Source of the DNA: an uncultured Eubacteriales bacterium
GTDB lineage: Bacteria; Bacillota; Clostridia; Christensenellales; UBA1242
Reading direction: 5' to 3'
DNA length: 64,000 nucleotides
Assembly: GCA_948695535.1 (NCBI GenBank)
Contig: CAPRTS010000007.1
Location: 3,164 to 67,163, forward strand
In this document: positions 26,346 through 48,110 of the stretch, one piece after another
How positions within the stretch are numbered: position 1 is the first letter of the stretch
Layout of the letters: the number at the start of each line of letters is the position of its first letter
Notes under the pieces: model-generated
Seen by the model: only the letters and a program-made list of their open reading frames with translations
Database searches by the model: none
Told to the model about the DNA's origin: nothing
Translations under genes and position numbers: made by a program

Positions 26346-26374
26346 TTGACCAAAGGTGAAATAAAAAATATAAT
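26346..26374 (+). promoter_or_regulatory. Near-consensus sigma-A promoter of the 6,804-aa gene
   Basis: TTGACC (26346-26351), a 17-nt spacer, then TATAAT (26369-26374). Confidence 0.6.
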
Positions 26375-26413
26375 TTATACATACTAGGTTGATGGGGAAT
26401 TGGGGGTAACCAT

Positions 26414-29400
26414 TTGAACAAACGAAGAACGCGGATTATTGCTCTGGTGATTATGAGTTTGCTCGCCGTCGTCAGTGTGGTGGGGGTGATTTTTGCGTTT
26501 AATAATTCTGGTACCCAACATGACGCTTACGGTAATATCGCTGTTTATGTGGATAAAACCGACATTGAACTGGATATTGAAGTTGAACGCGATGAAGACA
26601 GTGATAAAAAATTGCGTTTAGCCGATACACCCAATCGTTCGACCTATTTAACTATTACTGTTGGTGGTTTGCCGGACACTGCTGACCGAGGAGTAACTTT
26701 TAATGAAAGTTCCGCACGCAGTGGGGTGGTAAGTGTTGCGCTGGCTGGGTTTGACCAAAAACAAGGTATTAGTCGTTTCTTGATTACTGGACTCAATGGT
26801 GGAGCGCCGGTGACCTTGCGTTTTACCACACGTTCTGGTAACCAAACGATAGCCGTTAACGTCAAAGTCAATTTAACGGCCAAAGATTTCCGTTTGTCAT
26901 CAGGTGCTTACTTTGGTATTCGCCAAAATGGTGCTGGTTTGGATTTTAATAAAACCAGTACTTTGTCAAAACTTGATTTTTATGCTCATCCCGACGATAC
27001 TAATCAAACTTATAAACCTAATAATTTTCCACTACAATTCGCTTTAAAAGAAAATTACGCAGGTGTAACCTTGAACGACGGGGTTTTAAAAGTTAATGAC
27101 GATTTTGTGTTCGATGACGCAACCGATGGTCGTGAAATCGAAGTCTTGGCCAAATTACCAACCATGACGGAAATGGTGAGTATCCCCGTTTACGTCTTTC
27201 GTCCCGTTGATACCATTGCCGTGACAACCGATGCGTACGTGCCGACAACGACCGACGAAAACATCTATGATTTGATTTTGAATCGTGCTGAGCGTAGTCA
27301 GGCAAACTTTACCTTTGCTTTGCCCGCCAATCAAGGTGTAGTCGGTGAGAACTACAACTTTAAGCTTACGCCCCAAGATACCACTATGATCAACGTGACT
27401 AACAATGGCGAAGGTACAGGGCAATACGTATTGCGAGCTGTGGGTAATGCGGGACGTACGGCGGTAAGGGTAACGGCTTATCCACGTGCACGCATGACCG
27501 TGGACGGACAATTAAAGGACGTATGGTTTAATAACCCCGATACTGATGCTAATGTTTTTGTTGAACAAATGCTTTACTTGCGGGTGCGCAACGAATTTAT
27601 TGACCAAAATGAAACCGGTGGTTACGTTAATTGGAAATTACAATACAGTAAAGAACAACTATCGGCCTTCTATTACGAAGGAACGGGTGATGGCTATACT
27701 GACCAATTCACTATAAACACTATCAATACACAACCTATTACTTACGATAATGATATCGAATTTGAGTTAGTGGTTAAAGATGCCAGCAATCAAACTACTG
27801 TGTTTGACAAAGATACAGGGTTATTTAACGTTTTAGCGTTGTCGGTTTATCGTGACGGAGTATGGCAACCCTTGACCAGTGAACAATACATTGCCAACTA
27901 CCGTGACCAGTTCGCGGTGGCTTTGTTAAATAATACGGAATCAGAAAAGTACTTATCCGGCAATGTACAAGGTCTGTGGTTGCGTGCCAAAAGCGTAACC
28001 CCACTGAGTACCAGCACTGACGGTAATTTACGTTACGCCACTTGGGACGTGCCTTTGGTGGCGTTTGGGGCAATTGACCGTTTCCAAATTTCTAATTTAA
28101 CTACCTTGGACGATGGTACGACAGGGGTGGCGTTAGTGCATCACCAAGGCCTTAATCAAGTTAGCGCGGTGACATTGGATGTTTATGGCCTGTTGGCAAA
28201 CAATGACGCTTTTGAATACAGTGAGCACTGGGACGTTAAGGCGATTACCATCAATGACAATTTGCCCTTTACGGTAACTTATGCCGACAGTAACGTAGTG
28301 ACAAGTAATGGCCAACATGTTGCCAAACGGGCTTATACCTTTACTTTACGCAAGGGGACGAATGTTGAATATTATAATGCTTATCCCGTGACTTTTACCT
28401 ACCCCAATGGCATCAGCCAAACCATTTATGTTAAAATTTTCCCCACGGTTACTCAATTGAATATGAACGTGGTCAGTGATAATCATGGTCAAATTTACCG
28501 AACCATACAAGATGATAATGGTTACGTCAAAACTGTTTACGTTAAGCAAGGTGCTACCTACCGCATTAACGTTGCAACCGCTGACGTCAGTGTCGGTGCG
28601 TACGCAGAAATTGGTGATCAAGGTGAAAAGTCCTTTGATGCCCGTGAACTTGCCGAAGGTTGTTACACGGTGCCGGCATATTTGCACGCGTACAGTGATG
28701 ATGTTTACGTTAACCATGAGCAGCGGTTTACGGTAAACTTTGTGGTGGTGGCTCCGGTTGTTAACGTTGCGGCGCCTTCCACGATTACCTTACCGGGAAT
28801 TGGACCGTCAGTGCCAATAAAAGTTGCCCCCACCAGTGGTAGTGAGCAATATCTGCACGTTGATCCAGTTCTGCAAAACGAGAACATAGACATTAATCGC
28901 ATCACAACTACCGAATTTACCTTATCAGCTCGTTATTTAAAAGATGAACCGATAACGATTGGCTTCCGAATTTATAAACAATATAACTTTGGGATTGATT
29001 TTGACGGTGACGGTATCGACGATGTTTTTGAAATACAATACACCGCGGGTAACTTAGTTCCAATCACGGTAACTATCGCCAATACTAACCGGTTCAGCCA
29101 AGTAATTATCAATGAACAAGGCGCGGTTCGTACCGAAAAAGGGATTGGTAAATACATTGAGTTAGTTTCTAAACCGTTACCGGAAACACCAGTCAGTGTT
29201 AAGGTTACTACCTTGGGAACAAGCAGTTGTGATGAAATTGGTTTTACTTTTATTAAGTACCAAAATGGTAAGTTTGATATTACGGATAGACTGGACAACA
29301 TTAACGTAATCACGGCCGCGGAAGTTCAAGGGAACAGTTTATTGCTTACACCTAAGGCTGAGATCCGTAGTATGGGAATTTATGCACTGTTGGTCTACAC

Positions 29401-32400
29401 CAAAGATAGTTTACGTTTGGGGGCTACTGTTACCGGAAAGGTAGTTGAGATTCCGCAGACTTATGAAATTGTTCCGCTATATATTGGTACGCAAGAAGAA
29501 ATTGAAAACGTAATCGGTGAATTGAAAGATGGTATAATTCATGACGGGAATTCGGGGCAACTGAATGATTTGGGTGGTTATAACTGGGTTATGGCGGGAG
29601 AGAAACCTTATCATGCCGCTTTGTTCTATACCGTCGAAGGAACCGAGTATAGCAGTAACATTAAAGCAAATCGTTATTACTTAGATGATTTAGAATTAGT
29701 TTTAGGTAGCGACGAAAAATGGCAGCAGGCTTTGTGTTTTGAAGAATATGAATTCCATAAATTTGTTAACAACGTTGAAATTAAGGATTTGAATGACGAG
29801 GAAAAAATTTCGCGAGAAGGTTTAAGCAAAAAAACAATTCGTAAATACTTTCAAGTCGGGGATTACAGTTATGCGGGGCACGAAGTTTATTACTTATTAA
29901 GTAACGGTAACGGCGTTAATTTGTACTTCTATGTTGCGGAAAGCATAAAACATTTTGACGTAAGGTTGACCGTTGACGGCAGCAGTAGTATCGTGGCCGA
30001 GAAGAGTTTAACCACCGGCAGTATGAATTCGGAATTAGCCATAAGTACTGTGAAAGTGCAGCGCGGTCGTCCGTTTAGATTGGTTGGGGAAACGGACGCT
30101 TCGGTTAATTCCTTTTGGCAAATTGACCCCAGTGTAATTGATAATCCCGCTGGGCCGTCCTACATGGGGGGCAGTTACCAGTTTATGCCATACCTTGAAT
30201 TTGATGACGGTGGTGGTGCTAAGGAACGATTTAATTTAACGGTGTTACAAACCTTAGTAAAAGTTGGCATTACGGGAGGCGTGCAATATTTAAGTTTGGC
30301 TCAGTCGGGCAATACTTTGGACGGCGTCACAACAGCGGTCTATAACGCAACGGTGTTGACCGATCAAAGTTGGGATAAAAACATTTTGAACTACGTTTTA
30401 GATTATAACGGAGTGCGTTATCAATTGTTTGAAAATGCCGTGGGTGATATTATTACTGATGAAGTATTAATGGAAGGCGGCAATGCGGCGTTCTATTTCA
30501 AGTTGATCCCAACCAAAGGTAAACTTGACATTAATACTAACTATTACACGCATTACTTGCGTTTGGAAGTCGCGATTATTTTGAAATCGGCAGCTACTAA
30601 CCCGTTTGCTAACGTGTCAGGTGCTCGTTTGATTTTGCAAGAAAATTTATCAGGTTCAACCTTGGAGGGCAGTAAAGTCGCCCGTGAAGTTTCAGCAGGC
30701 TTAAACGTAGTACGACAGGGAATTACCAACGTGTCTATGGCTCATTTTGCGAATATTACAGTTGACACTAATACCGGTAATATCTCGCTGCCTGAAAGCC
30801 AAAGCAATACTAATATTATTTACGTAGACAACAGTGTTGTCGGTGGTATTTTGACTGTCCATCCGTCGCCTTATTACCTGGATGTTGACAGCATTGCCGT
30901 TGAATGCGTAAAGCCGGTTGAAGTTACTAAACAAATTGGTACCTCTTTGGATGGGGTGGCGGTCATGGGTACGGCACGTTACAGTATTGGCTTTATGCAA
31001 TTGGTCTACAACACTGATGAACAAGTCTACCAAAACTTTTTAAGCGGTACTTCGCCCAAAATGGTTTCGACTTGGTCGAAAAAAGATGGTTACCAATGGA
31101 ATGGTCGTTATTATTTCCGTACTTATTTGCGTTGTGACGGACAGGCCGATGCCGCAATCCCTGATGGTGCCGAATTCAAAATTGCGGTTACGATTACCAG
31201 TGAAGGGTACCAACGTATTACCGAACAAATGACAATATATGCCAAGTATAAAGACGGCATTGTGATTACACCTGACGATAATGGTACTGCCTACCCAATT
31301 AGTACCATGGTACAAACTAATTACCAAGCCGTCGGCACTTCCGCCGTTTACGATATTGCTTTCCCTGCCGGTTACTTACCTAATTATTTAGGTTACAGTA
31401 TCTATGGTGATGGTAAAGATTACGCTACTGTTGAGGTGGATGCACTTAATAAAACGGTGCGAGTGCGGTTGGCCAGTGACGTTTCGTTAATCAACAAAAC
31501 GATAGAAATTCGTTTCCCGTATCGTGCTCAAGGTGATTTTGTTAATCCCTATTTAAGCGTGGTCATTGTCCCTGTCTATTTTCAATTTACCGGTCTGTCG
31601 GTTGCTAACCATATTGAAACGCCGGTAATACTGTTAGCCGATGAATCGCCTGACAGTTTAACTTATCGAGTTATCGCTAACTATGATTCGTCCTTAGCTG
31701 TCATTACGTCGCGGTTATCGGATTTTAACGGTAATTTAGGTACTAAACGTCCTAACGAGTTGTTGCAATTTACCGACGAAGGTCATGGTAAACGTACGGT
31801 GCGGTTTAGTTATTCTTACGTTAATGGTATCCCCGTGATTATGCGGGACGGTGAACTGGTTTACGAACAAACAATTTACTATGAAGTAGCCGAAAGTCGC
31901 GATATTTTAGAACGCACGGTTTATTTGGCCATTGGTTGCACCGAAACCTATGACTTTGAGTTTGATCCTTTACGTAAACAAATTTGGCGTGTCGCCAGCC
32001 GTTCTGGTGCAGCAACCGATTTGTGGGACGTTAATATGCGCAATGATAATTCGGGCATTTTTACGGTCTCCTTAAATAACGAAGCCAATGGCGGCCTTGA
32101 TTTAATCAATGCTCCCTTGACGCTTGAAATCGGCCCACGAACCAGCTCGCAAGTGGATTTACGATTACACATTGTGCCCGTTTATTTTACGTTTAACGGC
32201 TTCAAAACGCTGGATTATCCAGTTGACCCTTTAATCGCTTTAAGTCAACCCTTTACGGTTACCTTGGCGGCGGATAATGTGGTTACTGCGGGGGGAGAAA
32301 AGGCCGTTACCGCTTTGGCAGAATTTAATGCCGACTTATTGCAAGCGCAAGAAGATGCAGACAAAAATTTAGTGAATTTTGCCCGCGTACCGAACGAAGA

Positions 32401-35400
32401 GGGTATCATAAATTTTGACTTTGACGAAACAACCCGTGCTTTGTCGCGTAATGATTTAAATAATCCCATTACGGCAACTACTCACTTGCAAGCCTCCGCG
32501 ACAATCATCTACCGCGATGGTCGTCCAGAATTAAATAAGAATGGCCAAAAGATGACTACTTATTTTGTAGTTAAAACTTACGGTTCTAATCCTGATGGTG
32601 GTAACGAAAACGAAAACCCATTAGAACCGCAACCTAGCAGCCGTTATCGCAAAGTCGCACAGGCGATTGGTACTTCGGTAACTTATAACATCGCTTTGAA
32701 AGACGTTACCTTCGATACAGTCTTGGATTGTAGTGAAACCAGTAACACTACTAATCCAAAACCATGGAGTAGCGATAGTAAATGGACGGCTAAGTTAAGC
32801 GGTAATAAAATTATTGTGGATTTACAACCGAATACGGATTTGTTTGGATTGACCTTGGTGATCAATGTTTATTCGGCAGAAGATAATACTACCCCCGTTT
32901 ACACCTTGAATATTGTCCCGGCTTACTTCACGGTCGAAAATTTGGTAGCGGTCGGTCATGCTGATGAAAATCCGTTACAAATAATCAGTCCCGAAACAAT
33001 TGATACCTTACGTGTGGATTTTGAGTCTGTTTATGGTAATCTCGATTATCCCTATCTCGACAAAATCGCAGCCTTCCGCGAAACCTTATTACATACAGAA
33101 TTATTAACCCGTATTGCAGATGGCGGCCTTTTAACTTTATTATTGGGTGTCAGGTACAATAATGGCGAACCCGAAATTGTCAGCCGAGCCAACAGCAGTG
33201 CTTTAACCGTGCAAAGCACATACCGTTACGAATTATTGGCGAACGGGCCAAAAGTTGCCACTTTGGCGCAGGCAATTGGTACTACGATACAATATGACCG
33301 TATTCCGTACGGTAAAACTATTCGCAGTATCAGTCGTTGCTACTATGATCCGGATAACCGTGAAGCCGACGAAGAAGGTTACGTTGAATTGACTTCTCGC
33401 TATGATGCGGATAAGCCTTATACTCAATGGGACGCTTACATCAGTAATAACGATAGCCGATTGTTCCAAGTGTCTTTGGCCAATACTACCGATTTGTTTA
33501 ACTATCGCTTGAAAGTGGAAGTATACACCGTCGGTGGCAAGGGAACCAGTACCCCGGATTGTAAGTTGTACATTATTCCGGCTCAGTTTGTGCTTAGCGG
33601 CCTGGCGGTCGATGGTCAAAGCGGTAACGAAATTTGGTTTGTTGCCGACAGCACTCCGGTTGATGCAAACGCGTTAATTAATAATATTTCTTACGTTGGT
33701 GTAGTTGACAGTCGTAATTTGAACGGAAGTAATATCGCTGGCCTGTTAACCAAATTTAATACTGAACAATTACGCCAAAAAGCTGACTTATTGGAACGCA
33801 ATTTTGACAGTGACGCAACCACCGGCAAATTAACTACCACGATGTACCTTAAATACGTAAATGGTGAACCAACGTTGGTGGCGACTAAAAATGAAGCGGA
33901 TATTTGCTTGCCTACCGATTTTACTTACCAAATCTACGGGCCGAGTGAATATAACCCGAATTACCCCAACTTGCCAACGGGACCGCGTACTCGCAGTGAA
34001 GTCCAAGCAATTGGTACCACGGTTCGTTACCATATTGATTTACCGACGGGACAACTGATCGATAAGAAAACGCTGGAGGACAGCAGTCTGGAGGACAGCA
34101 GTGCGGATAAATTATGGACCGCAACTTGGGAAGATGAAGAGTTAGTGGTCACCTTGAAACCTAACACTAAGTTACTGAACAATACCATTAAGTTGTCATT
34201 CTATTCGATGCTTGATCACTCGGCTAATGCTTACTTGTTTGAGTTGACGATTAGGCCAGTCTTGTTTGAAGTGGTTGGTTTTACGATTGCGGATCATCCC
34301 GAACAACCGGTAACTTTGTTGTCGGCTGACGACAAAGCTAATCTCGCAGCCGTAGTTAAACACATGGATATTTACCAAACGAATGGTGACACAACTTATA
34401 ATGCAGCCGTAAGTTTCTTGCGCCAACAATTGGCTAAGTTTAATCAACAAACCTTAGCTAGTTACGTTAAGAACGGCAATACACAGTTTTGGCAAGTTGA
34501 CGACGAATACGACAGCAATAGTAACTTTGGTTACTTGACTTTCCGGGCTGCCATTAACTACAATGATCGTAACCAACCGCGATTAGTGAATATCGACAGT
34601 AACCCATTAAGCGTTGTTGAATCAACTGTGGCTTACCAAATGGTTGCTTCGGCTGACGAAATTGGATCGACAGCTGCTTATTACCAAGCAATTGGCACAA
34701 CCGAATTTTACCCATTACCGGCGTCAGTTTTGCAAAATAACCGTTTTAAGGCAGTAAGCGGTAGTGGTGCCAGTGTTGACGCCAGTGGTACCAAAATAAC
34801 TGCTACTTATTGGCAAGCGTCCATCGTGAACAGCGGTGACCGTTATGCCGTCAAAGTTGAATTTAATGCAACTCAATATGGTACAGCCTTATTGGGCACC
34901 GACATTATTTTGGAAATTGTTGATGCTAATCCAAACCATGTCTTTACTTTGCAAATTAAACCCGTATACTTTGTGGTCGAAGGTTTTGAAGTGGTTAATC
35001 ACCCCGAGCGACCTTTGTGGTTGCTGACTTCGCCCGAAACCACCGAAAATGTATCCAGTCTACGCTTTAACGCCAAGGTGCGCCGTTCTTATGCTCCGGA
35101 TTTGCAAGCCGATATTGATGTTGCCTTAAATGTTTTCAATAATAAATTGCAAAACGATTGGTACAATGATTTAGAAATAAGTGCTGTCGGCGGTGAATAT
35201 TTGCTTGTGCGGGGAGCAGTGGCTTATAACACAGAAACAATAGGTGAGCAACTTGGTGATGGTTCGGCTAACCTTGTGCCGATAGTTACAACGGGACTTG
35301 AACGTATTCCGCTAATCCGCAGTATATTCCAATACAAAATTTATAATAACTCGGGTACACAGTTACCAGACACAGGTATTGTTTATCCCACGGGCACGCG

Positions 35401-38400: not shown

Positions 38401-41400
38401 GAATGGTGGCCCAAAACGTGATGCTAAGAATTACGAATTCTTTGATATGCAAATTACGGGTGGCAGCAATTACGGTGAAATCGTAGTAACGTTTAAACCA
38501 CAAGTCCGTTTGTTGATTAACCCGCTTGAAATTTTAATTCCGTACGCCAAATACCAAACGGCTGATGGTCAAGAAGGGGACGTGGTTTGGTATTATTACG
38601 CTTTGGTTATTAAACCGGTCTTATTTGAAGTAACCGGTTGGGGCGTTGAAAACGAAAAAGGTGAAGTGGTTGATGAATTGATCATTGACGACAGTGCAGT
38701 AGAATTGAAATTCGTGCCCATTATCCGCAGTGCTCCCTTAGACAACCAAACCTTTGTTGATGATCCCAGCGACCCGAATAATGCCGAAACCAGCGAATTG
38801 ATTTTCATCAGTAACTCAATTCGCAATTTGAAAAAACAAATTAATGATTATAACGCTGCTGTGGCTGATAAATATACTTATTTAGTGATCAACAATTACC
38901 CCGAAGAAAATCACCAAATTAACTACTCTTTATACCGTGACGAAGGCGCACAAAAGACTTACTTAATTCGCGATGTTAATGAAGATACCTACACAACTAT
39001 CGATTTGTCGGCGACTATTTCTTACCAAGTTAACAGCTTTGATACCTCCGCGGCCGACGGGGTACATGCCGTGGTCGGTTATGACGATTTGAATAACGGT
39101 ATTCGCGTTAGCAGCAGTGTTACCATCAAGACTACGGATCGCACTAAGGCTGGTAACGAAAATTTAATGGTAATCACGCAAGATAACGCTAAGGTTTTGG
39201 AAAGTTTAGCACCCGATACTGATTACATCTTGATGGAAGATATTCATTTATCAAGAGTTAGTGCCAGTGGTTGGCAGCCCGCGGTGTTCCCGACCAACAG
39301 TACTTTAGATGGTAATAATTTCAAAATCTATCTTGACGCCGGTTTTGATTTGAGTAAAACACCAGGCAATATCGGGTTGTTTGAAAGTATCCCTAACGGT
39401 TCAGTGGTTAAAAACTTACAAGTAGTTATCCCGCAGGGTACTTCGTTCGATAAGGCTCGTACTTTGGAAGTTGACCTAACTGATTATAATGAAGGTGCCG
39501 TTAATATTGGTTTATTGGCCGGTACAAATAACGGTTTAATCACTAACTGTGCTGTGCTGTCGGATTGGCAATTTGTGCAAGATTTAAGTAACGTTATCAA
39601 TCCGTTAAGCGGTAACAAATTTACCAGCAACTTGCAATTTAACATGGAAGGCTATCTTTTTGGTACCGTATCATACGATGGAGTAGAAGACACTTATTTC
39701 TTTGAAACCAGTATCAACAGCAATCAAGAAATAACTATTGAACGGGTTTATAACCGTTATGGCTACCGTTTGATTAAAAATGGCGCAAATAAATGGGTTG
39801 AGTACGTTGATAAGTACAATAATAATATCGAATTTATTACGCCCGATACTACCAGTGTGGCACGTTATGATAATTACAGTGCAATGATGAGTGATGGCTC
39901 AGCAGCAGCCCGTGTGTTGGTAAAAGGAACTAACGCTAAATTAGACGTTACTTTGGGTGGTTTAGTTGGTACAAACGCTCGCATGGTCACTAACAGTCGG
40001 GTCTTGATTGATGTTGAATTAACTGACTTGAACAATGGTGCCGACAATGTTGATGACGCAATCAGTGCTAATTCAGCGATAGTCGGGGGCTTTGTCGGTA
40101 ATAATGGTAAGACAGGTACGATAACGGCTTCTTTCTTCCGTGATGGTAACGTTATCAATAACGCGAATGTTAGTACCGCAAGCGATAATCCAATTTGTTA
40201 CTTGGGCGGTTTCGTCGGGTATAACCAAGGTAAAATTTTGCAATCTTACGCAATGGGACAATCTACTAACCGTGATAATAAAGCAAACATCAATTTCACT
40301 TCGTTGGCGGGTAGCGTCAAAACCAGCCGTAACTCCTTAGGTGGATTTGTCCACCAAAATGATGGTACCGTTACGGATTGCTTAGTTAACATGTTGATTG
40401 ATAAGGGTGGTTTGGCTGGTTTCGCGGGTGGTTTTGTCTACCGCAATACCACTAACGGCAAGATTACAAACTGCGTAGAAAATAACGTCTTGTACTTTGT
40501 CGCGGAAGATGCCAGCGGTGCTTTGTACCGACCATTTATCGCTTTGAATGCCAATATGACGGTTGATGATGCCAAAGCTGGTACTAACACGGTTTTAACC
40601 AATTTGCAAAATTTGTACTACGCTGGTAACTTGTCGGGTACGGGTGCATCGCAATTCTTGGCTCCGGGCGTGCTGACCCAATTGGCTGACGTTAATGATC
40701 CTAACGCAAATTCGCGTAAATACAATATGGTGGAAAGTTACGAAGGTTTCTCGATTGGTGAAAATAATAATGCGGATTGGTACATTACCGCCCAAAACAC
40801 AATTTGGATGATGACCGATTTAGGCCCCATGTTGCGTACCCCGAATGATATTGCCATCAGTTATCGTAAAACTATTGCGCAATCTTCACCATACTTATTT
40901 GCGCCCGGTACCGCGCGTAACCCGTATCTTATCTGGCAAAAAGACCAATTCCGTAGTTATGTTTACGCAGCCACGCCGTCGGCAACGAAAGCCGATAAAA
41001 CTGGTGCTAAACAAAATGTTGACGCTAACCGGCAAAATAACCATTTACGCTTAGTTGATGATGTAACTTTGGACGGTATCCAAGACACTTATAAGATTAC
41101 TTATACGGGTACTTTTGAAGGTAATGGCCTAACTTTGGGCGGCATTGGCCTACCTTCGGTAGCAACAACTTTGGTAACGGCCGGTTTGTTTGGTAAAACG
41201 GAATACGCCACTATTCGTAATATCAATTTTACCTTTAATAATAATATCAATTCGACTGCACGTTATGTTGGTGGTATTGCGGGTATCAGTATTAACACTA
41301 ACTATGTTGACGTTAATTTGAACGGTTCGTCATCGACTATTTTAGGTGCTAACATAGTGGGTGGCGTTGCGGGACTGATGGTGGTTAACGATTATCACGT

Positions 41401-44400
41401 TGAAAATTATAATATTAACAGTTCAATTTCGGTTCGGGCTAATTACAGTGAAGGTATTACTTCCCCTGGATCCAGTCGCTTTACTTCGGGGGAAGAATAC
41501 GTCCGACAAACTTTGTACTCGCGGGTCGAGTATCACCGTTCGCCCCGGGAACAAGCGTTTGGTACTGCGGGTGGGGTATTCGGGTTTGTAACTGCTAACC
41601 CCAACAATTACAAGGTTTTTGATAATGACGGTAACGCAAGTATTAAGCCTCGTAAAGCCGAATCACGTTATGAAACACTTGACGAAGCGGTAACTCTTAC
41701 CAGTTTCAACACTGACGCGACGATGTTCATGCGCGATCGTAATGGTAATGCTATTGATGATACAGGTATCTATTATACCGACCAAATTGTCTTACGCAAT
41801 ATCAGTGGTAAGGTCGGCGATATTGCCGCCAATGTGGCTGGTGGCTTGATCGGTATTATGGACGAAACTATTGAATTGCACGAACCGACAGTAGCCAGCC
41901 TTAACAAATTAACTGGTAAATACTATTTAGGTGGAGTGGTTGGTATTAACTTAGGTAAAATATCGGGTGGTACAATTGGTCAAATTGCTGCCGATGGTAC
42001 TGTTAATTCCTTACCTTTGAACGTTAATAGTTCGGTTACCGGCAGTTATATTTATCGTTTTGACTCTAATGCGGCAAACCCTAAACATTATTGGGGTATG
42101 ACTGTTGGTGCGGTAGCAGCGTACAACAATGGTCTTGCTGACAATAACAACAGTGGTACCATCGAAAATGTTAACGTCAATGTTAACATGCTGAACGGTA
42201 GTGCCCAAAAAATTTATGTTATCGGCGGCGTAATTGGAGAAGCGGGTACTTACAGCACCATCAGTAATACAGTTAATAATATTTATGCTACGGGTGCTAA
42301 TACGGTAATGTTCTCAGCCAGCGAATTCAACAAGATCGGTTTCTATGTGGGCAAGATCGTTGGTCGTGCGGTAATTGACCCGAACAATGTTCGTTCTAAT
42401 ATGGTTATGATGCCGGCGTCGGTCGATATCGTGTACCAAGATTGTTACGTGTCGTTAACCGATTTCGCTACGCCAAATTACAAAGTTAACAACGTTTACA
42501 CTAACGCGTTCGGTATCCAAGCCGACGAAAATGGTAACAGTATCACTCACAAAGTGCAAACCATGACTATGGACGAATACCAACAATACATCGTGGATAG
42601 TCTAGTCAGAGGGAACGCTACTATCGCGCAATTGGTCACGGCCTTAGAACCCTGGTACCGTAGTTTACCTACTTATATTGTTAACACGACAATTAACGGT
42701 AAAAACGTATTTGTTGAAAAATTAACGGCACTTGCTTATACTGAATTTGTCAATTGGTTAACGGTTAATAAGGTGTTTGATCGCTTTACTGCTTATAAAT
42801 ACAATGGCGTCGATAATACCGGAGCAACGGTTACCAAAAACCGCTTACTGAACGATTATTGCGCTTACGTTGAATATTGTGCGATTGGTAAAGTTGATGA
42901 GGGCGAAGTCTGGTTTAACGAAAACCTAGTTGCGTGCCGTAACCAACGTTACCAACTGGCGGAAGAATTCTTTGCGTACAAATCGCAAGCCGCTGATAAC
43001 AGTACGCAATATCCTGCTACAATTCGCTTTACTTGGCAACAATACGAAAACTATCGTTATTTGTTAGCGTCGCTAAATATGAAGCAAAACGAGTACTATA
43101 AACGCACTTATGGCGACGAAATCTTGAAATATGACGCTGACCTTGGCTATTTAAGCTCTTGGTTGGCGAATAAAGATTTACCGGAATTGGGTGCAACCGA
43201 CGATTACGGTACGGTTAAATTAACTGACGGATACGCTGATTTGCAAGCGTTATTGAACCACATGGTTACGGAAAACGCGGACGGCACTGTGCAAGTCGTT
43301 AACCGTTTCACCGAAAAAGACCCCTTGCAAGCCTACATGAACTATATTACTGACGGATATACTTACCGCCGCACTTTGGGTTCGCTCACCGAGAACATAA
43401 CTCATGAACAGTACGGTACCCGCGGTTCGGGCTGGTATATGACCTTGAAACAATATTTCCACTACGTAAACGACATTGCGGGTGAAACTTACGGTGACCG
43501 TGACCATCAAGGTAAATACGACGTTGATTTAATTGCGGACTATTTATACTCATCTTATACGTTGAACCAAGCCGCCAGTCCCGCCATAACTTTGGACGAA
43601 TACATGGTTTTCCGCATTGACGAAGCCCCAATTTTGCGCCAAAACGAACTTGAATGGGTAGAAAAAGGTCACCAAAAAGGTGGTGTAACGGTCAGCCTGG
43701 TGGGGGCGTTAACTATGCCGGAATGGGGCTTAACCGATACCAAAGAAGAAGCGTGGCAAGCATTATTGGCCGATACGGAAAACGTTAAACTGGTTGCCGA
43801 AAACGGCGAAATCGTGTACACGAATAACCAAGACGGGGCAGCAGCACGTAAAGTTTGGGCTTACCAAACGGCTTACACGGCTGCCCGCGCACAAGGCATT
43901 GACATCATCAAATACCAAGAAATGTGCCGACTTGGTGGCAGTTTGTACGAATTGACCCACAGCAAAAAAGAAGACGGTGTCACTTTGCGCTATGCCACTG
44001 TTGATGAATACCTATTTGCCTTAAAGGTTCCGCAGTATGGTTGGAGCGATGCACAATCCGCGTTTATTTCGGGAACTTTCGGGATCGAAAATATTCGTTA
44101 CGCGCTGTCGGCCACCTATTACGGAAACATTTTGCAACAGACTTTGGATAAAGTAATGGCCATTAAAGCGGAAAATAACCCGCGCTTAAAACATAAATTC
44201 CAAAACAAAGCCGAAGGTTGGGTCTGGTATTATGACGACGATAATAACGATTCGTTAGATTCTGGAGTTGGTGTCAAAGACCGTCGTGGTACTTGGCAAC
44301 TGATTGCGGCGGACAACTTCCATAATGGTGATGGTGAAGTTTACGAATACGTTAACCCCGGCCAAGCCATTGACTTGCGCGAAAACACCAATTCGGCACA

Positions 44401-46828
44401 AGGACCCTTGCAGGGTGCGGCGCTGTATATTGACGCGGACGATGATAAATTGTTTACTACTGATGTCAAAGGTGTGCAAGAATTGGGCAGTGGCGATACT
44501 TTGGTACTGTACGAAGTGCCCACCGTGGACGGCGCCGATTTCAAACAATTGGCCAAAGATGACGATGGCAATCCGCTTGCCGGCCAATACAAATACTTCA
44601 AAATCAGTCGTCGCATCATCGAACAAGGTACCATGCGCTATACAACCACCAACGGCCGTAACGAATATTCCGGCAATACGGCGGATTACTTGGAAGAAGC
44701 TTTGTGGTGGCAAAATCAAGGCTTTACCGAGGAACAATTTGACCAAATCAAAGCCAACGCGATGCAACAATCGGTGCCGTACGCGGGGCAAGTCGTATTG
44801 ACCAAAGAACCCGGTACTAACCATTACACAGTGGCTGACCGCGGGGTAGGCTTTGTGGTGGCCGACGACTGGTACGCGAAAAAGGGCGGTGAAGAATATG
44901 GTTTCCGCACGTTCAACTTTACCACCACCGATTACACGAATATTGCAACCAATGCCCACTATACCACCTTGACCAACCAAGACACCGGCGAAACTAAACA
45001 ATGGTGGTACAGTAACTACGCTGATTACCTTTTGTTCTGCGGCCTGTTGAACATGGAAAACACCACCACGGGCAGCACCACCAGCGACATCGACAGCATC
45101 GCCGCCCTCGCCGCGCGTTTACCGTACCCCGATAATAACCAAACGATTTGGAACACTGCGTCGACGTCCTTGCCCGACCGAACCAACTACGTTAATTATC
45201 CGTTTGTACGCAGGACAGTTAAGGAGCTATCGGATGATTTGATTTCGGAAAATGATTTGGCCGCCGCCATGGAATTCGGCAGTGACCAGGCCGCCTACCT
45301 GCAATTACTGGCGACCAAGCACACCACGGCGGATTACGTTACTTGGGCGTTTGACAATAAAACCGCGACCACCTTGGATAATAAAAACAAATACTTCCGT
45401 ATGAACCATTATTTGTATTTGCAGACCAAAAACAAAGGCGACGAATTAACCGGTGATAATTTAAAAAACTTCGTGTGGGCGTTAAACCAAAATAACCGTG
45501 CCAAAATTTATTACACGGGCGTAACCCAAGAAAGCCGTACCGACGAATTGTTGGCCTACCGCGAAGAATGGTGGAACCACGCCGACCAAGGCAACACGCC
45601 GTATATGACGTTCCGTGATTACCAAGAATGGATTAACGTTTACGCCCACGGTGACGAATATAAAATTGACCGTGGTGAATTGGCGGAAGGGGAAGAAGCC
45701 ACCGCGGAAGCGTGGTTGGATATTTACGCGTTCGCGGTTTGGAAACGTATGGAAAAATACGAAAATAACGTCGAATACATCAACAAAGGCGACCAAAGTT
45801 CGGGCATTACCCAAATAACCAACCCCATCCTGAAACGACAAATCAGTACCACCGTGTTCCCCAAAATCGCCAGCAGTGGTAACGGCAGTGGCCCCAAACC
45901 GACCTTGCCCGTGGGGTACTGGTGGGAACAAGATACGGAAAAAGAAAAAGACGGCAGTGTCAAGAAAGATAATGATGGTAACCCCATTTTGAAATGGGAA
46001 GATAAGGACAAAACGAAACCCGTCATGATCAAAGTGCCGGTGGACGGTGCCTATTATGGTTGGCCCGAAGATAAAGAGCCACCGAAGGAGCGCGTGCGTC
46101 CGTATTACGACCGTTACGAATACAACGAAAAATATTTGGAAGGTTACCGCGACGTTAACGACCCCGAAAACTTGCTGGCTTACACTGTATACGACTTTGA
46201 CAAAGGCACCTTTAACCCCGATAATATTTACAGTCTGCTTTGTGATGATAAGCCAGTATGTAAGCATCCCGAACACGCCAAGTTCCAATCCGCCCAATGG
46301 TTGGGCCGTTACACCCAAACCACCTATGTCGAAAAACAACAAGAAAAGAAAGACGCCAACGGTAACGTGGTTAAAGATGAAAACGGTAAGCCGGTTATGG
46401 AAACCGTCATGCAGGAGAAGAAAGATGCCGACGGTAATGTGGTTACCGATGAGAACGGTAACACGGTGATGGAGCCCGTCATGGAAGCCGTAGTTACCAA
46501 ATACGACGGCATCGACCGCATGACTGACAAAGCGTTCACCCAATTGTACGTGCCGTTTGATTATTTCAAACGGGCGTGCCAAATGATCCAATCGGTGTAC
46601 AGTGCCGATAACCAATACGCGGGCTACCACAACTTCATGCACTACTGGGCGAAAAACGGTAAATGGAACTGGATTTGCTTTACCACCGATGGTGGTACGT
46701 TGGCTGATGACGATCCTGTTTTTGAACAAGTGGATTACACCTATCGTGCAACCAACTTCTGGAATAACTTCGACCCCAGCCAAGGCTTACACGCGTTGGC
46801 GTCGTGTAATGACCCCATTAACTGGTAA
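26414..46828 (+). CDS. Giant 6,804-aa surface protein: N-terminal signal anchor, Ig-like region, 11 tandem modules, GLUG-motif beta-helix region, and a W/Y-rich C-terminal region
   Basis: A single uninterrupted 20,415-nt ORF. The TTG start at 26414 lies 7 nt after GGGGG (26402-26406). N-terminal TM: IIALVIMSLLAVVSVVGVIFAF. No LPXTG or C-terminal TM. A rho-independent terminator follows directly. Confidence 0.95.
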   Translation: MNKRRTRIIALVIMSLLAVVSVVGVIFAFNNSGTQHDAYGNIAVYVDKTDIELDIEVERDEDSDKKLRLADTPNRSTYLTITVGGLPDTADRGVTFNESSARSGVVSVALAGFDQKQGISRFLITGLNGGAPVTLRFTTRSGNQTIAVNVKVNLTAKDFRLSSGAYFGIRQNGAGLDFNKTSTLSKLDFYAHPDDTNQTYKPNNFPLQFALKENYAGVTLNDGVLKVNDDFVFDDATDGREIEVLAKLPTMTEMVSIPVYVFRPVDTIAVTTDAYVPTTTDENIYDLILNRAERSQANFTFALPANQGVVGENYNFKLTPQDTTMINVTNNGEGTGQYVLRAVGNAGRTAVRVTAYPRARMTVDGQLKDVWFNNPDTDANVFVEQMLYLRVRNEFIDQNETGGYVNWKLQYSKEQLSAFYYEGTGDGYTDQFTINTINTQPITYDNDIEFELVVKDASNQTTVFDKDTGLFNVLALSVYRDGVWQPLTSEQYIANYRDQFAVALLNNTESEKYLSGNVQGLWLRAKSVTPLSTSTDGNLRYATWDVPLVAFGAIDRFQISNLTTLDDGTTGVALVHHQGLNQVSAVTLDVYGLLANNDAFEYSEHWDVKAITINDNLPFTVTYADSNVVTSNGQHVAKRAYTFTLRKGTNVEYYNAYPVTFTYPNGISQTIYVKIFPTVTQLNMNVVSDNHGQIYRTIQDDNGYVKTVYVKQGATYRINVATADVSVGAYAEIGDQGEKSFDARELAEGCYTVPAYLHAYSDDVYVNHEQRFTVNFVVVAPVVNVAAPSTITLPGIGPSVPIKVAPTSGSEQYLHVDPVLQNENIDINRITTTEFTLSARYLKDEPITIGFRIYKQYNFGIDFDGDGIDDVFEIQYTAGNLVPITVTIANTNRFSQVIINEQGAVRTEKGIGKYIELVSKPLPETPVSVKVTTLGTSSCDEIGFTFIKYQNGKFDITDRLDNINVITAAEVQGNSLLLTPKAEIRSMGIYALLVYTKDSLRLGATVTGKVVEIPQTYEIVPLYIGTQEEIENVIGELKDGIIHDGNSGQLNDLGGYNWVMAGEKPYHAALFYTVEGTEYSSNIKANRYYLDDLELVLGSDEKWQQALCFEEYEFHKFVNNVEIKDLNDEEKISREGLSKKTIRKYFQVGDYSYAGHEVYYLLSNGNGVNLYFYVAESIKHFDVRLTVDGSSSIVAEKSLTTGSMNSELAISTVKVQRGRPFRLVGETDASVNSFWQIDPSVIDNPAGPSYMGGSYQFMPYLEFDDGGGAKERFNLTVLQTLVKVGITGGVQYLSLAQSGNTLDGVTTAVYNATVLTDQSWDKNILNYVLDYNGVRYQLFENAVGDIITDEVLMEGGNAAFYFKLIPTKGKLDINTNYYTHYLRLEVAIILKSAATNPFANVSGARLILQENLSGSTLEGSKVAREVSAGLNVVRQGITNVSMAHFANITVDTNTGNISLPESQSNTNIIYVDNSVVGGILTVHPSPYYLDVDSIAVECVKPVEVTKQIGTSLDGVAVMGTARYSIGFMQLVYNTDEQVYQNFLSGTSPKMVSTWSKKDGYQWNGRYYFRTYLRCDGQADAAIPDGAEFKIAVTITSEGYQRITEQMTIYAKYKDGIVITPDDNGTAYPISTMVQTNYQAVGTSAVYDIAFPAGYLPNYLGYSIYGDGKDYATVEVDALNKTVRVRLASDVSLINKTIEIRFPYRAQGDFVNPYLSVVIVPVYFQFTGLSVANHIETPVILLADESPDSLTYRVIANYDSSLAVITSRLSDFNGNLGTKRPNELLQFTDEGHGKRTVRFSYSYVNGIPVIMRDGELVYEQTIYYEVAESRDILERTVYLAIGCTETYDFEFDPLRKQIWRVASRSGAATDLWDVNMRNDNSGIFTVSLNNEANGGLDLINAPLTLEIGPRTSSQVDLRLHIVPVYFTFNGFKTLDYPVDPLIALSQPFTVTLAADNVVTAGGEKAVTALAEFNADLLQAQEDADKNLVNFARVPNEEGIINFDFDETTRALSRNDLNNPITATTHLQASATIIYRDGRPELNKNGQKMTTYFVVKTYGSNPDGGNENENPLEPQPSSRYRKVAQAIGTSVTYNIALKDVTFDTVLDCSETSNTTNPKPWSSDSKWTAKLSGNKIIVDLQPNTDLFGLTLVINVYSAEDNTTPVYTLNIVPAYFTVENLVAVGHADENPLQIISPETIDTLRVDFESVYGNLDYPYLDKIAAFRETLLHTELLTRIADGGLLTLLLGVRYNNGEPEIVSRANSSALTVQSTYRYELLANGPKVATLAQAIGTTIQYDRIPYGKTIRSISRCYYDPDNREADEEGYVELTSRYDADKPYTQWDAYISNNDSRLFQVSLANTTDLFNYRLKVEVYTVGGKGTSTPDCKLYIIPAQFVLSGLAVDGQSGNEIWFVADSTPVDANALINNISYVGVVDSRNLNGSNIAGLLTKFNTEQLRQKADLLERNFDSDATTGKLTTTMYLKYVNGEPTLVATKNEADICLPTDFTYQIYGPSEYNPNYPNLPTGPRTRSEVQAIGTTVRYHIDLPTGQLIDKKTLEDSSLEDSSADKLWTATWEDEELVVTLKPNTKLLNNTIKLSFYSMLDHSANAYLFELTIRPVLFEVVGFTIADHPEQPVTLLSADDKANLAAVVKHMDIYQTNGDTTYNAAVSFLRQQLAKFNQQTLASYVKNGNTQFWQVDDEYDSNSNFGYLTFRAAINYNDRNQPRLVNIDSNPLSVVESTVAYQMVASADEIGSTAAYYQAIGTTEFYPLPASVLQNNRFKAVSGSGASVDASGTKITATYWQASIVNSGDRYAVKVEFNATQYGTALLGTDIILEIVDANPNHVFTLQIKPVYFVVEGFEVVNHPERPLWLLTSPETTENVSSLRFNAKVRRSYAPDLQADIDVALNVFNNKLQNDWYNDLEISAVGGEYLLVRGAVAYNTETIGEQLGDGSANLVPIVTTGLERIPLIRSIFQYKIYNNSGTQLPDTGIVYPTGTRTRTVAQAIGLTNNYTIDLADLPNFGTAHLTLTEERQDGTKSDWTATSGWQVTADGNSLTVSLAAASDLLERTLVITISYNADYYNPAYVLKIKPVWFKVVDIAMQDHPESPIIVDDLNNYARPIFVPVVEYAPELTDEVSPKVTAFVKKFTNNMTSVLTTSRRGSDGKTEYIRCTAFVGYDYPDVTNEDETLRHDGVYLSNNIVDRLWRVFTVQQKDEGQLTPKPAKTVVQGIGSTKEYYLELSKSVNNGTYPSNDGKATAVVKGDQTTVTLAADTDLIGRTLVFDLGGAFDLKITPVWFEVKKLEVVGHPERPVWLFSPATTASLNYRAVTNAIPAELGIEEKIAAFNTNLNAQRATLVSESVSDKYITINAAVDYVDGLPTLVRIGGDLSNVVETVFEYYVWADSREPTPEHPAVIATTKVNQIIGGSKTYTLQNIQGKVYYQWLWVEGAGQLKQANNGSFVQYEGVTVNFDVTKNLFTVAIAADVNYLLQPIKINLPYLVTVDKQEVWYTHCLEITPLLLEVYGWQIKPDATAPIAAYECVGDYLKLNIQNLPLNANFVPKVNYSSAAELAPEIEQALAALQEQIDADLTLLNWQYQGDYVQISANNNKLVVMQNTTETQNTAVDLTGRIVYENGRPTAEKDGGISVANQVMVSTGNPQPWPPEEPLVGHQTINRQAIGTEYIYHLDFVDADYLLNDAQQPYLDVQYDQMRIMCDGVVLNPQKDYTTDNDDADDNRFVIDGEYDLLTVDYDADAQNVIVDLAAVLALTTHSLTIDIPYKVDTNYLDPDSKAPVYATKYYRLAIDPVSYLLNGFTLVGHVNNYVALNDQDVQVTLQADVTRTDRATNAVRNSINMAIDNFENQLKTMLQNQNLDDAWTITNLDGTVNNYIDIVTLGGSLWLQRTAPVTASHRVTTRVYINYQDGRPVLSEASKAELYFDVEILVDTDAKDVEFFPGLDDVKEGERREFQQAVGTSKTYVIDKTANATETLYFKWLTVKNGGPKRDAKNYEFFDMQITGGSNYGEIVVTFKPQVRLLINPLEILIPYAKYQTADGQEGDVVWYYYALVIKPVLFEVTGWGVENEKGEVVDELIIDDSAVELKFVPIIRSAPLDNQTFVDDPSDPNNAETSELIFISNSIRNLKKQINDYNAAVADKYTYLVINNYPEENHQINYSLYRDEGAQKTYLIRDVNEDTYTTIDLSATISYQVNSFDTSAADGVHAVVGYDDLNNGIRVSSSVTIKTTDRTKAGNENLMVITQDNAKVLESLAPDTDYILMEDIHLSRVSASGWQPAVFPTNSTLDGNNFKIYLDAGFDLSKTPGNIGLFESIPNGSVVKNLQVVIPQGTSFDKARTLEVDLTDYNEGAVNIGLLAGTNNGLITNCAVLSDWQFVQDLSNVINPLSGNKFTSNLQFNMEGYLFGTVSYDGVEDTYFFETSINSNQEITIERVYNRYGYRLIKNGANKWVEYVDKYNNNIEFITPDTTSVARYDNYSAMMSDGSAAARVLVKGTNAKLDVTLGGLVGTNARMVTNSRVLIDVELTDLNNGADNVDDAISANSAIVGGFVGNNGKTGTITASFFRDGNVINNANVSTASDNPICYLGGFVGYNQGKILQSYAMGQSTNRDNKANINFTSLAGSVKTSRNSLGGFVHQNDGTVTDCLVNMLIDKGGLAGFAGGFVYRNTTNGKITNCVENNVLYFVAEDASGALYRPFIALNANMTVDDAKAGTNTVLTNLQNLYYAGNLSGTGASQFLAPGVLTQLADVNDPNANSRKYNMVESYEGFSIGENNNADWYITAQNTIWMMTDLGPMLRTPNDIAISYRKTIAQSSPYLFAPGTARNPYLIWQKDQFRSYVYAATPSATKADKTGAKQNVDANRQNNHLRLVDDVTLDGIQDTYKITYTGTFEGNGLTLGGIGLPSVATTLVTAGLFGKTEYATIRNINFTFNNNINSTARYVGGIAGISINTNYVDVNLNGSSSTILGANIVGGVAGLMVVNDYHVENYNINSSISVRANYSEGITSPGSSRFTSGEEYVRQTLYSRVEYHRSPREQAFGTAGGVFGFVTANPNNYKVFDNDGNASIKPRKAESRYETLDEAVTLTSFNTDATMFMRDRNGNAIDDTGIYYTDQIVLRNISGKVGDIAANVAGGLIGIMDETIELHEPTVASLNKLTGKYYLGGVVGINLGKISGGTIGQIAADGTVNSLPLNVNSSVTGSYIYRFDSNAANPKHYWGMTVGAVAAYNNGLADNNNSGTIENVNVNVNMLNGSAQKIYVIGGVIGEAGTYSTISNTVNNIYATGANTVMFSASEFNKIGFYVGKIVGRAVIDPNNVRSNMVMMPASVDIVYQDCYVSLTDFATPNYKVNNVYTNAFGIQADENGNSITHKVQTMTMDEYQQYIVDSLVRGNATIAQLVTALEPWYRSLPTYIVNTTINGKNVFVEKLTALAYTEFVNWLTVNKVFDRFTAYKYNGVDNTGATVTKNRLLNDYCAYVEYCAIGKVDEGEVWFNENLVACRNQRYQLAEEFFAYKSQAADNSTQYPATIRFTWQQYENYRYLLASLNMKQNEYYKRTYGDEILKYDADLGYLSSWLANKDLPELGATDDYGTVKLTDGYADLQALLNHMVTENADGTVQVVNRFTEKDPLQAYMNYITDGYTYRRTLGSLTENITHEQYGTRGSGWYMTLKQYFHYVNDIAGETYGDRDHQGKYDVDLIADYLYSSYTLNQAASPAITLDEYMVFRIDEAPILRQNELEWVEKGHQKGGVTVSLVGALTMPEWGLTDTKEEAWQALLADTENVKLVAENGEIVYTNNQDGAAARKVWAYQTAYTAARAQGIDIIKYQEMCRLGGSLYELTHSKKEDGVTLRYATVDEYLFALKVPQYGWSDAQSAFISGTFGIENIRYALSATYYGNILQQTLDKVMAIKAENNPRLKHKFQNKAEGWVWYYDDDNNDSLDSGVGVKDRRGTWQLIAADNFHNGDGEVYEYVNPGQAIDLRENTNSAQGPLQGAALYIDADDDKLFTTDVKGVQELGSGDTLVLYEVPTVDGADFKQLAKDDDGNPLAGQYKYFKISRRIIEQGTMRYTTTNGRNEYSGNTADYLEEALWWQNQGFTEEQFDQIKANAMQQSVPYAGQVVLTKEPGTNHYTVADRGVGFVVADDWYAKKGGEEYGFRTFNFTTTDYTNIATNAHYTTLTNQDTGETKQWWYSNYADYLLFCGLLNMENTTTGSTTSDIDSIAALAARLPYPDNNQTIWNTASTSLPDRTNYVNYPFVRRTVKELSDDLISENDLAAAMEFGSDQAAYLQLLATKHTTADYVTWAFDNKTATTLDNKNKYFRMNHYLYLQTKNKGDELTGDNLKNFVWALNQNNRAKIYYTGVTQESRTDELLAYREEWWNHADQGNTPYMTFRDYQEWINVYAHGDEYKIDRGELAEGEEATAEAWLDIYAFAVWKRMEKYENNVEYINKGDQSSGITQITNPILKRQISTTVFPKIASSGNGSGPKPTLPVGYWWEQDTEKEKDGSVKKDNDGNPILKWEDKDKTKPVMIKVPVDGAYYGWPEDKEPPKERVRPYYDRYEYNEKYLEGYRDVNDPENLLAYTVYDFDKGTFNPDNIYSLLCDDKPVCKHPEHAKFQSAQWLGRYTQTTYVEKQQEKKDANGNVVKDENGKPVMETVMQEKKDADGNVVTDENGNTVMEPVMEAVVTKYDGIDRMTDKAFTQLYVPFDYFKRACQMIQSVYSADNQYAGYHNFMHYWAKNGKWNWICFTTDGGTLADDDPVFEQVDYTYRATNFWNNFDPSQGLHALASCNDPINW
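31320..38640 (+). repeat. Array of 11 diverged tandem protein modules (about 200-290 aa each) inside the giant gene
   Basis: Each module opens with a QA(I/V)GT-x3-Y motif. These lie near nt 31325, 31925, 32660, 33270, 34005, 34685, 35415, 36095, 36675, 37435 and 38320. Each module closes with h-x-I-x-P-V-x-F-x-V-x-G, near nt 31575, 32180, 32920, 33580, 34255, 34960, 35680, 36290, 36955, 37825 and 38615. Confidence 0.75.
34073..34102 (+). repeat. Perfect 15-bp tandem duplication inside the giant gene
   Basis: CTGGAGGACAGCAGT occurs twice, at 34073-34087 and 34088-34102. It is in frame and encodes LEDSSLEDSS. Confidence 0.95.
46346..46489 (+). repeat. Two 72-bp (24-aa) tandem repeats near the C-terminus of the giant protein
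   Basis: KKDANGNVVKDENGKPVMETVMQE is followed by KKDADGNVVTDENGNTVMEPVMEA. The two DNA copies differ mainly at synonymous or conservative positions. Confidence 0.9.
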
Positions 46829-46863
46829 CCCGTGGGCGATTAGCCGAGTAGGGCAGTACCACT

Positions 46864-46895
46864 AAAAAAGCAACGCGAATCCGCGTTGCTTTTTT
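46864..46895. terminator. Bidirectional rho-independent terminator between convergent genes
   Basis: A-run (46864-46869), stem GCAACGCG (46870-46877), loop AATC, stem CGCGTTGC (46882-46889), T-run (46890-46895). Confidence 0.8.
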
Positions 46896-46917
46896 AATGC
46901 TTAGTCTTACACAACGA

Positions 46918-47907: not shown

Positions 47908-48110
47908 ACTTCCTATTTTACGCTCTTTCCCGCCAAAAGTCAAGATAAATCCGCTAAATTCTTTTGCCAAATGTTACCAACGACCGTCGTCCGCCGACCG
48001 TAAACCTTTGACCCACAAAATACAGTGGCTATTATCCTTGCTTAACCACATTTTGCGGTGGCGGTGCGGGTTTCCCTTGTCCAAAGTGCCAAAAAGCGCT
48101 ATCATATTTT

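Follow-up and report, generated by a model that had tools for sequence, protein, structure and literature searches.

The 64,000-nucleotide stretch analysed here (the window; contig CAPRTS010000007.1 of assembly GCA_948695535.1, from an uncultured Eubacteriales bacterium) carries a giant gene on the forward strand, a single open frame from 26414 to 46828 that begins at a TTG codon and runs for 6,804 codons plus stop with zero internal stops. The sole sigma-70-type match between positions 26000 and 27000 (TTGACC-17-TATAAT, 26346–26374, + strand) agrees with the consensus at 11 of 12 positions and is promoter-like by consensus alone, and a Shine-Dalgarno sequence, GGGGG (26402–26406, + strand), is separated from the TTG start by a gap of 7 nt. 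Past the stop codon, a hairpin at 46863–46896, composed of AAAAAAGCAACGCG-AATC-CGCGTTGCTTTTTT with an A-run and a T-run at its flanks, has a folding energy of -21 to -23 kcal/mol, with z = -4.79 and none of 200 shuffles folding as well. The consensus terminator scan did not report this hairpin, apparently because A:T pairs absorb its T tail, and since it sits between the giant gene and a convergently encoded lipoprotein gene, it can serve both. A preliminary description of this DNA had proposed an uninterrupted frame with its own promoter, Shine-Dalgarno sequence and terminator, and all of these elements are found. The features of the locus are listed below with the basis of each assignment (aa, amino acid residues; pN/pS, ratio of nonsynonymous to synonymous differences; AF2, AlphaFold2).

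26346–26374, + strand: promoter-like site (11/12 consensus match)
26402–26406, + strand: Shine-Dalgarno sequence GGGGG (read from sequence)
26414–46828, + strand: giant open reading frame (ORF) (open frame, colinear orthologues, pN/pS)
26432–26500, + strand: predicted N-terminal transmembrane (TM) helix, aa ~7–29 (hydropathy, orthologue conservation)
26501–31300, + strand: N-proximal region, aa 30–1629 (no family match, conserved in orthologues)
31301–39163, + strand: 11 tandem modules, aa 1630–4250 (self-BLAST, motifs, AF2 model of module 6)
39164–40813, + strand: GLUG-motif region 1, aa 4251–4800 (PF07581, G-G-phi-phi-G motifs)
40814–42433, + strand: GLUG-like region 2, aa 4801–5340 (orthologue identity, pN/pS, motifs)
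42434–46513, + strand: aromatic-rich C-terminal region, aa 5341–6700 (no relative, AF2 model, orthologue blocks)
46514–46825, + strand: terminal domain of ~100 aa (representatives search, locus co-presence)
46863–46896, no single strand: bidirectional intrinsic-terminator hairpin (folding versus 200 shuffles)
46918–47970, - strand: lipoprotein gene (lipobox, profile search, co-occurrence with the terminal domain)

A conserved giant gene under purifying selection

A pattern scan across single genomes for each species, queried with the alignment of the putative β-helix region, returned 54 loci, nearly all of them in metagenome-assembled genomes (MAGs) of gut Clostridia or Christensenellales, from roe deer, buffalo, sheep, rabbit and human samples. 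Nine of these loci (L001, L003, L004, L006, L007, L008, L010, L011 and L015) each hold one frame that is colinear with window residues ~800–6700, the upstream limit of ~800 being set by the 10-kb flank, and four full-length orthologues from the representatives library (P0005–P0008; 6,535–6,970 aa) align end to end at 35–40% identity, the N-terminal helix included. The chromosomal site is likewise shared: recD2 lies downstream of the giant gene in all nine orthologue loci, across which RecD2 identity ranges from 69% to 91%, while pheS is visible in seven of the nine and pheT in five. Measured against L001, where pS is saturated at ~0.7, pN is 0.13–0.37 and pN/pS 0.19–0.46 in all nine regions tested. 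The giant gene is therefore real, conserved and under purifying selection.

An assembly artefact, or a decaying pseudogene without a product, might be suspected from the probably metagenomic source of the window, but this reading is scarcely credible given 20.4 kb free of stop codons, a common architecture, in a single frame, across at least 13 independent assemblies, pN/pS far under 1 in all regions and the lack of long DNA repeats able to collapse or join in assembly. Within the gene, no direct DNA repeat reaches 30 nt, and tandem repeats are limited to a 72-bp unit present 1.9 times at 46346–46483 and a 15-bp unit present twice at 34073–34102, so that repeat-driven misassembly is unlikely. 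The preliminary description had named a chimeric or frameshifted assembly as a threat to its account and comparison among related genomes as one check; colinear orthologues, synteny and pN/pS make chimera, frameshift and pseudogene readings very unlikely, and in effect exclude the first two.

Two of the colinear loci, L003 and L004, come from MAGs labelled Prevotella; their neighbouring recD2, pheS and pheT genes are 55–80% identical to the Clostridia genes of the window, and the label is probably a binning or labelling error. Shorter syntenic relatives (L013, L017 and L019, the latter also P0004) encode proteins of 3,000–3,700 aa, and in L017 the gene order is tadA, a 506-aa gene, the giant and then recD2. 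More widely, giants with GLUG motifs, of 3,400 to >7,100 aa, occur in dozens of Christensenellales-like species, and two such proteins of >5,000 aa are encoded on one contig in three cases (L029/L036, L030/L040 and L032/L042). A distant relative places a VirB4-like ATPase gene (L046:1-2142; PF19044, DUF87, AAA_10) directly 5' of a 3,598-aa GLUG giant, and conjugative or type IV secretion-like modules may include some of the paralogous giants.

Architecture of the giant protein

The only strongly hydrophobic stretch of the giant lies at aa ~7–29 (peak Kyte-Doolittle mean 3.06); two further stretches just reach the 1.6 cut-off (1.64 and 1.66), neither of them C-terminal. The helix is preceded by NKRRTR and followed by a body with a net charge of about -290, and both the helix and a (V/I)(F/Y)AF(N/Q/K)N motif are kept in the four full-length orthologues. 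Basic residues (KRRTR) ahead of the helix and an acidic body fit a signal anchor with its N-terminus inside and its C-terminus outside, and with no AXA-type cleavage site visible by eye at the helix, we regard the segment as probably an uncleaved signal anchor of this topology. The preliminary description had placed a signal anchor here from which the body projects via its N-terminus, a topology that agrees with the presence of one TM helix, with the positive-inside rule and the acidity of the body, and with the conservation of the anchor. It had further held that no LPXTG, SLH, choline-binding or C-terminal TM anchor is present, and the searches agree: the last 200 aa contain no LPXTG-type motif and no hydrophobic segment at the C-terminus, and Pfam gave no SLH or choline-binding match in the giant, which may leave the N-terminal helix as the sole anchor. 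TM or lipid anchors, and not LPXTG, are likewise found on other envelope proteins in the window.

The N-proximal region that follows (aa 30–1629) has no match in Pfam (searched in 400-aa pieces, orthologues included), NCBIfam or PDB sequences. A search with aa 1–1650 yielded no homologue at E <= 0.001 among 8,000 word-sharing candidates from a 5.8-billion-protein collection that seems not to return proteins of >5,000 aa, the orthologues having appeared only in the representatives library, where the region is 27–48% identical in the four full-length proteins. Its origin as diverged copies of the module domains was rejected, profile probabilities staying <4% before aa 1540. The preliminary description had taken these ~1,600 aa for Ig-like β-sandwiches, a fold that is putative here.

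Self-BLAST and motifs (QAIGT..Y, IxPVxF, FN..L, YxNGxPxL) resolve exactly 11 tandem modules in aa 1630–4250, the number given in the preliminary description, starting at aa 1630, 1830, 2075, 2278, 2523, 2750, 2994, 3219, 3413, 3667 and 3960. The modules share 21–47% identity with one another by self-BLAST, and the other ten are 17–31% identical to module 6 (17–36% when the modules of the relative P0002 are added), whereas each is 60–70% identical to its counterpart in L001, and full-length orthologues carry 11–12 IxPxxF motifs each. Low identity between modules combined with high identity between orthologous counterparts indicates an array that is old and stable rather than recently expanded. 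The AF2 model of module 6 (predicted local distance difference test, pLDDT, 85; predicted template modelling score, pTM, 0.83) features two β-sandwich domains, with a long helix in the second. Its best structural matches are protocadherin EC1-4, NCAM Ig1-3 and cadherin-23, all weak, and in a viral library generic immunoglobulin (Ig), BIG2 and FN3 proteins, also weak. Extended from this single model, the 11 modules would amount to 22 Ig/cadherin-like β-sandwich domains, and by Pfam scan they belong to no catalogued stalk family.

Beyond the modules, PF07581 (GLUG) matches region 1 at E 4.5e-8 (33.4 and 31.0 bits; cut-off 20.5) over five stretches at aa ~4361–4700, and is also above its curated cut-off in the relative P0003; the GLUG-motif region of the preliminary description is thus recovered. 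PF07581 covers <3% of the giant. Motifs of the form G-G-phi-phi-G number 14 in aa 4250–5345 against 2 elsewhere in the protein. Region 2, marked by F-E-G-N-G-L-T and repeated GG(I/V)(A/V)G motifs, is the best conserved part of the giant, with 43–68% mean identity per 100-aa block to the four full-length orthologues (peaking at 65–68% in aa 4801–5000), 77% identity to L001 and the lowest pN/pS, 0.19. The GLUG stretch is also the only part common to the shorter relatives L013, L017 and L019 and ~30 other giant ORFs of 3,400 to >7,100 aa. Judged by these motifs, aa 4251–5340 probably fold as right-handed β-helices. Hits to NCBIfam on the giant were noise, far under cut-offs, and PDB sequence and profile searches with four segments and with the β-helix alignment returned nothing credible.

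The length of the query mattered to the family searches. Pieces of 3,500–3,600 aa matched no Pfam family, while pieces of 600–760 aa gave GLUG above cut-off, and because the long-piece scan missed GLUG, very long hmmscan queries can evidently hide short-motif matches. An apparently Pfam-negative giant, scanned as two halves, was accordingly discarded as a false negative.

The remaining ~1,460 aa (aa 5341–6804) are moderately aromatic-rich (W 2.5%, Y 7.7%) and have no Pfam, NCBIfam or PDB match, as the preliminary description anticipated in reporting an aromatic-rich end with no recognisable domain. Internal repeats were considered and rejected, all profile-profile probabilities being <10%. Conserved blocks lie at aa 6390–6490 and 6708–6760, and the AF2 model of aa 5605–6804 (pLDDT 56, pTM 0.40), for which Foldseek gave no match, suggests a mixed alpha/beta region. 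Shorter syntenic relatives lack this region altogether.

Its last ~100 aa form a distinct Cys-containing domain (QLYVPFDYFKxAC...GYHNFMxYWAKNGxWNWIC...TYxxTxFWN) with no Pfam family. All orthologue loci with the C-terminal region carry this domain, the other loci do not, and its identity among orthologues is 40–56%. The terminal domain also matches many short ORFs and fragments in the representatives library. The apparent stand-alone copy in L055 is probably a contig-end artefact, and the other candidate stand-alone forms, the terminal-domain ORFs of L056, L057/L058 (two samples) and L059 with in-frame stops upstream, lie on contigs of <2 kb. The 72-bp repeat at 46346–46483 encodes KKDANGNVVKDENG..VMQE twice and lies in a poorly conserved, gap-rich linker right before the terminal domain; D/N/G/K-rich repeats resembling it match unrelated proteins.

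The convergent lipoprotein gene and other genes of the window

Convergent to the giant gene, positions 46918–47970 (- strand) encode a 350-aa protein with the lipobox LGTAGC and no Pfam or PDB relative. In all nine orthologue loci the interval between the giant's stop codon and recD2 holds one or two minus-strand genes of this type, directly downstream of the giant as in the window; a profile built without the window protein matches that protein at E = 3e-17, and the lipobox Cys is invariant across the family. When all ORFs in the 54 loci and the window were searched with the profile, the family co-occurred exactly with the terminal domain, both being present in 10 loci and both absent from the other 45. 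In L017 and L019 the giants end past the second putative β-helix, with only 24 and 9 nt left to recD2 and no lipoprotein gene, while the same lipoprotein type lies 3' of the terminal-domain ORFs on L055 and L057/L058. This distribution suggests a functional link between the lipoprotein and the giant's C-terminal region, suggestive and short of proof because the loci are all orthologous and related by descent, and their co-occurrences are not independent observations.

Directly 5' of the giant gene, positions 24807–26327 encode a 506-aa protein with an N-terminal TM helix and G/N/V/T-rich, β-solenoid-like repeats and no Pfam match; the same order of a 506-aa gene and giant recurs in L017. Further upstream, a gene for a VirD4/TraG-type coupling ATPase (11420–13420) lies directly 5' of a second giant ORF (13476–21041; 2,521 aa), which has an N-terminal TM helix, a C-terminal TM helix with an RLRRK tail and no Pfam or NCBIfam match. 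By similarity search this second giant and the 6,804-aa giant are unrelated. Among the window ORFs scanned with Pfam there was neither a relaxase nor a VirB4 gene, and the VirD4-like gene was rejected as a linked partner of the giant family, the pairing not holding in other genomes. An 866-aa protein with a signal peptide, a C-terminal TM helix and a basic tail (7168–9768, - strand) also has no Pfam match, and none of the surface proteins of the window has an LPXTG signal. At the far end, positions 56495–64000 encode a serine recombinase, a tyrosine integrase, an EcoRI-like adenine methyltransferase, a GmrSD-HNH nuclease and Shedu SduA; GC content falls there from ~0.43 to 0.32–0.36, and this segment is likely a mobile defence island.

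Candidate roles of a giant with a predicted membrane anchor

Taken together, these data make it reasonably probable that the giant is a fibrillar surface protein, anchored in the membrane in type-II orientation and bearing a C-terminal head at its distal end, and that its β-helix/head end would bind a ligand. In the model we infer, which extends to surface exposure, β-helix fold, rod length, ligand binding and interaction with the lipoprotein, KRRTR and the TM helix would act as an uncleaved signal anchor holding the giant in the membrane, and Sec would export the remaining, acidic ~6,770 residues. A stalk some 100 nm in order of magnitude, as estimated from the domain count and typical domain lengths, would be built from the N-proximal 1,600 aa together with the 22 predicted β-sandwich domains, and this stalk would keep the two GLUG-type β-helices and the 1,460-aa head off the cell. 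The β-helix/head end would then be the working end, most likely binding glycan, a partner cell or host material, while the terminal domain and/or the adjacent conserved block would cooperate with the convergently encoded lipoprotein, which may dock, fold or retain the giant's C-terminus. The analogy with fibrillar adhesins (Monzon et al. 2021, PMC8286594) makes binding the most likely activity. Host or partner-cell adhesion, put forward in the preliminary description from the size of the protein, would be a candidate function.

Like those proteins, the giant is a long single chain with a tandem β-sandwich stalk (here 11 modules, modelled as 22 β-sandwiches) and a non-repetitive end far from the anchor (PMC8286594). 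Many members of the fibrillar adhesins, the class of SasG, SiiE and Cna, have no known anchor, and TMHMM predicts a TM segment in only 20% of those lacking one (PMC8286594), so that TM anchoring, as by the conserved predicted helix of the giant, is not the common mode; Pfam and LPXTG-motif searches gave none of the catalogued anchors in the giant. The giant moreover reverses the usual Gram-positive polarity, in which the adhesive domain is N-terminal and the LPXTG signal C-terminal, its stalk modules are old and 17–36% identical rather than recent near-identical repeats, and it is accompanied by a dedicated neighbouring lipoprotein, unlike fibrillar adhesins.

Several observations weigh against this assignment. 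Pfam and NCBIfam scans identified no adhesive domain, lectin or carbohydrate-binding module, the chunked Pfam scans giving GLUG alone; the head is modelled at low confidence (pLDDT 56), motifs are what point to the β-helix fold, and the N-terminal 1,600 aa have no recognised fold in Pfam, NCBIfam or PDB-sequence searches. The signal anchor may be cleaved, the lipoprotein loci are all orthologous, and the role proposed for the giant, known here from its gene, draws on sequence and models. Finally, these old, position-specific modules differ from the stalk repeats of many adhesins, which are near-identical and turn over fast, and such an array fits a structural role as well as adhesion.

A structural role is the first alternative to be weighed. 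Because the presence of the lipoprotein tracks the C-terminal region, the C-terminal end of the giant may be tethered as well, or may have a partner of its own. If the terminal domain docked on the lipoprotein of the same cell, the 6,800-aa chain would form a long loop or arch that, like a coat or a spacer, organises or protects the surface instead of extending towards foreign targets. The strict co-occurrence of the lipoprotein gene with the C-terminal region and terminal domain, the invariant lipobox Cys, the fixed chromosomal site among housekeeping genes and a module array that is old, length-stable and position-specific (11–12 IxPxxF motifs per orthologue), as is typical of a structural component, all agree with such a scaffold. 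We nonetheless judge it unlikely: contact between giant and lipoprotein is putative and drawn from gene adjacency, which could just as well point to a chaperone or release factor, or to chance co-inheritance in one clade, and the L017 and L019 relatives lack both head and lipoprotein, which places the core function outside them.

A related and more speculative proposal, to which we give a similarly low likelihood, is a two-component surface system in which the terminal domain or the block at aa 6390–6490 docks specifically on the lipoprotein of the same cell or of a sister cell. Were this the case, same-cell docking would close an arch of ~100 nm or more, and docking on a sister cell would amount to kin-specific bridging and floc formation in a gut clade, a new cohesion mechanism built of uncatalogued domains. 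A preprint describes flocs for cultured Christensenella with Methanobrevibacter (bioRxiv 10.1101/872333).

Rather than as binding modules, the two β-helix regions could serve as a glycan lyase or hydrolase of the right-handed β-helix type, presented by the stalk to plant or mucin glycans of the gut. Many right-handed β-helix proteins are glycan-active enzymes, region 2 is the most conserved segment (43–68% per block, 65–68% in aa 4801–5000, pN/pS 0.19), the GLUG stretch alone is common to all shorter and paralogous giants, and the relatives come from herbivore or human gut samples. Yet neither Pfam nor NCBIfam gives a match to a lyase, hydrolase or Beta_helix family, no PDB relative emerges even with a profile, and the invariant residues are the structural G/N/I of the GLUG coil with no obvious catalytic set, which renders an enzymatic role improbable.

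A contact-dependent or polymorphic-toxin filament, with a C-terminal toxin and a downstream immunity gene, would account for a very long filament whose small, distinct C-terminal domain also occurs in short ORFs next to a conserved small gene, but we regard it as most improbable, as the terminal domain is conserved (40–56%) rather than hypervariable, the neighbour is a convergent gene for a 350-aa lipoprotein and not a small same-strand immunity protein, and Pfam and NCBIfam scans gave no match to a toxin, LXG, Rhs or pretoxin family.

Other known systems match the giant in part. The staphylococcal proteins Ebh and Embp reach 5,000–10,000 aa and combine a membrane-spanning anchor, in place of LPXTG alone, with a long modular rod, and they consist of helical FIVAR/GA modules with an N-terminal YSIRK-type signal and a C-terminal TM segment; the giant has instead an N-terminal anchor and β-sandwich pairs, with none of FIVAR/GA, YSIRK or a C-terminal TM segment detected. 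A sortase-anchored LPXTG protein is not indicated by the last 200 aa, and compared with the RTX/BIg adhesins SiiE and LapA, the giant has no Big_ or HemolysinCabind Pfam match and carries an N-terminal signal anchor instead. Membership in PF07581, whose motif it carries above cut-off, says nothing on mechanism, the family being a short motif to which no function is assigned. The giants of Omnitrophota are mostly unannotated, predicted to be extracellular and suggested to act in attachment, and likewise need structure prediction for their domains to be found (bioRxiv 10.1101/2023.11.21.568195); they come from a different phylum, exceed 30,000 aa and have many TM regions and mostly SecA-like domains, whereas this giant has 6,804 aa, one TM helix and no SecA domain. 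In literature searches on giant proteins or genes in Christensenellales and in bacteria generally, we found no description of the family. It is of a known kind, the giant fibrillar surface protein, with no named family beyond GLUG motifs; its reversed polarity, old module array, uncatalogued domains throughout and conserved lipoprotein neighbour are new.

About 6,700 of the 6,804 residues match no catalogued family, and the giant and its neighbour are thus a source of new families, namely the two-sandwich module, the conserved N-proximal region, the head of 1,460 aa, the terminal domain of 100 aa and the candidate partner lipoprotein. With 20 kb, about one third of the window, the giant would be the largest single coding investment there. 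It has stayed intact throughout a clade of uncultured gut Clostridia sampled from ruminants, rabbits and humans, and so it probably has a central part in the contact of these bacteria with their surroundings. As a concrete pair, the head and the lipoprotein lend themselves to work on the surface architecture or the aggregation of Christensenellales-like bacteria.

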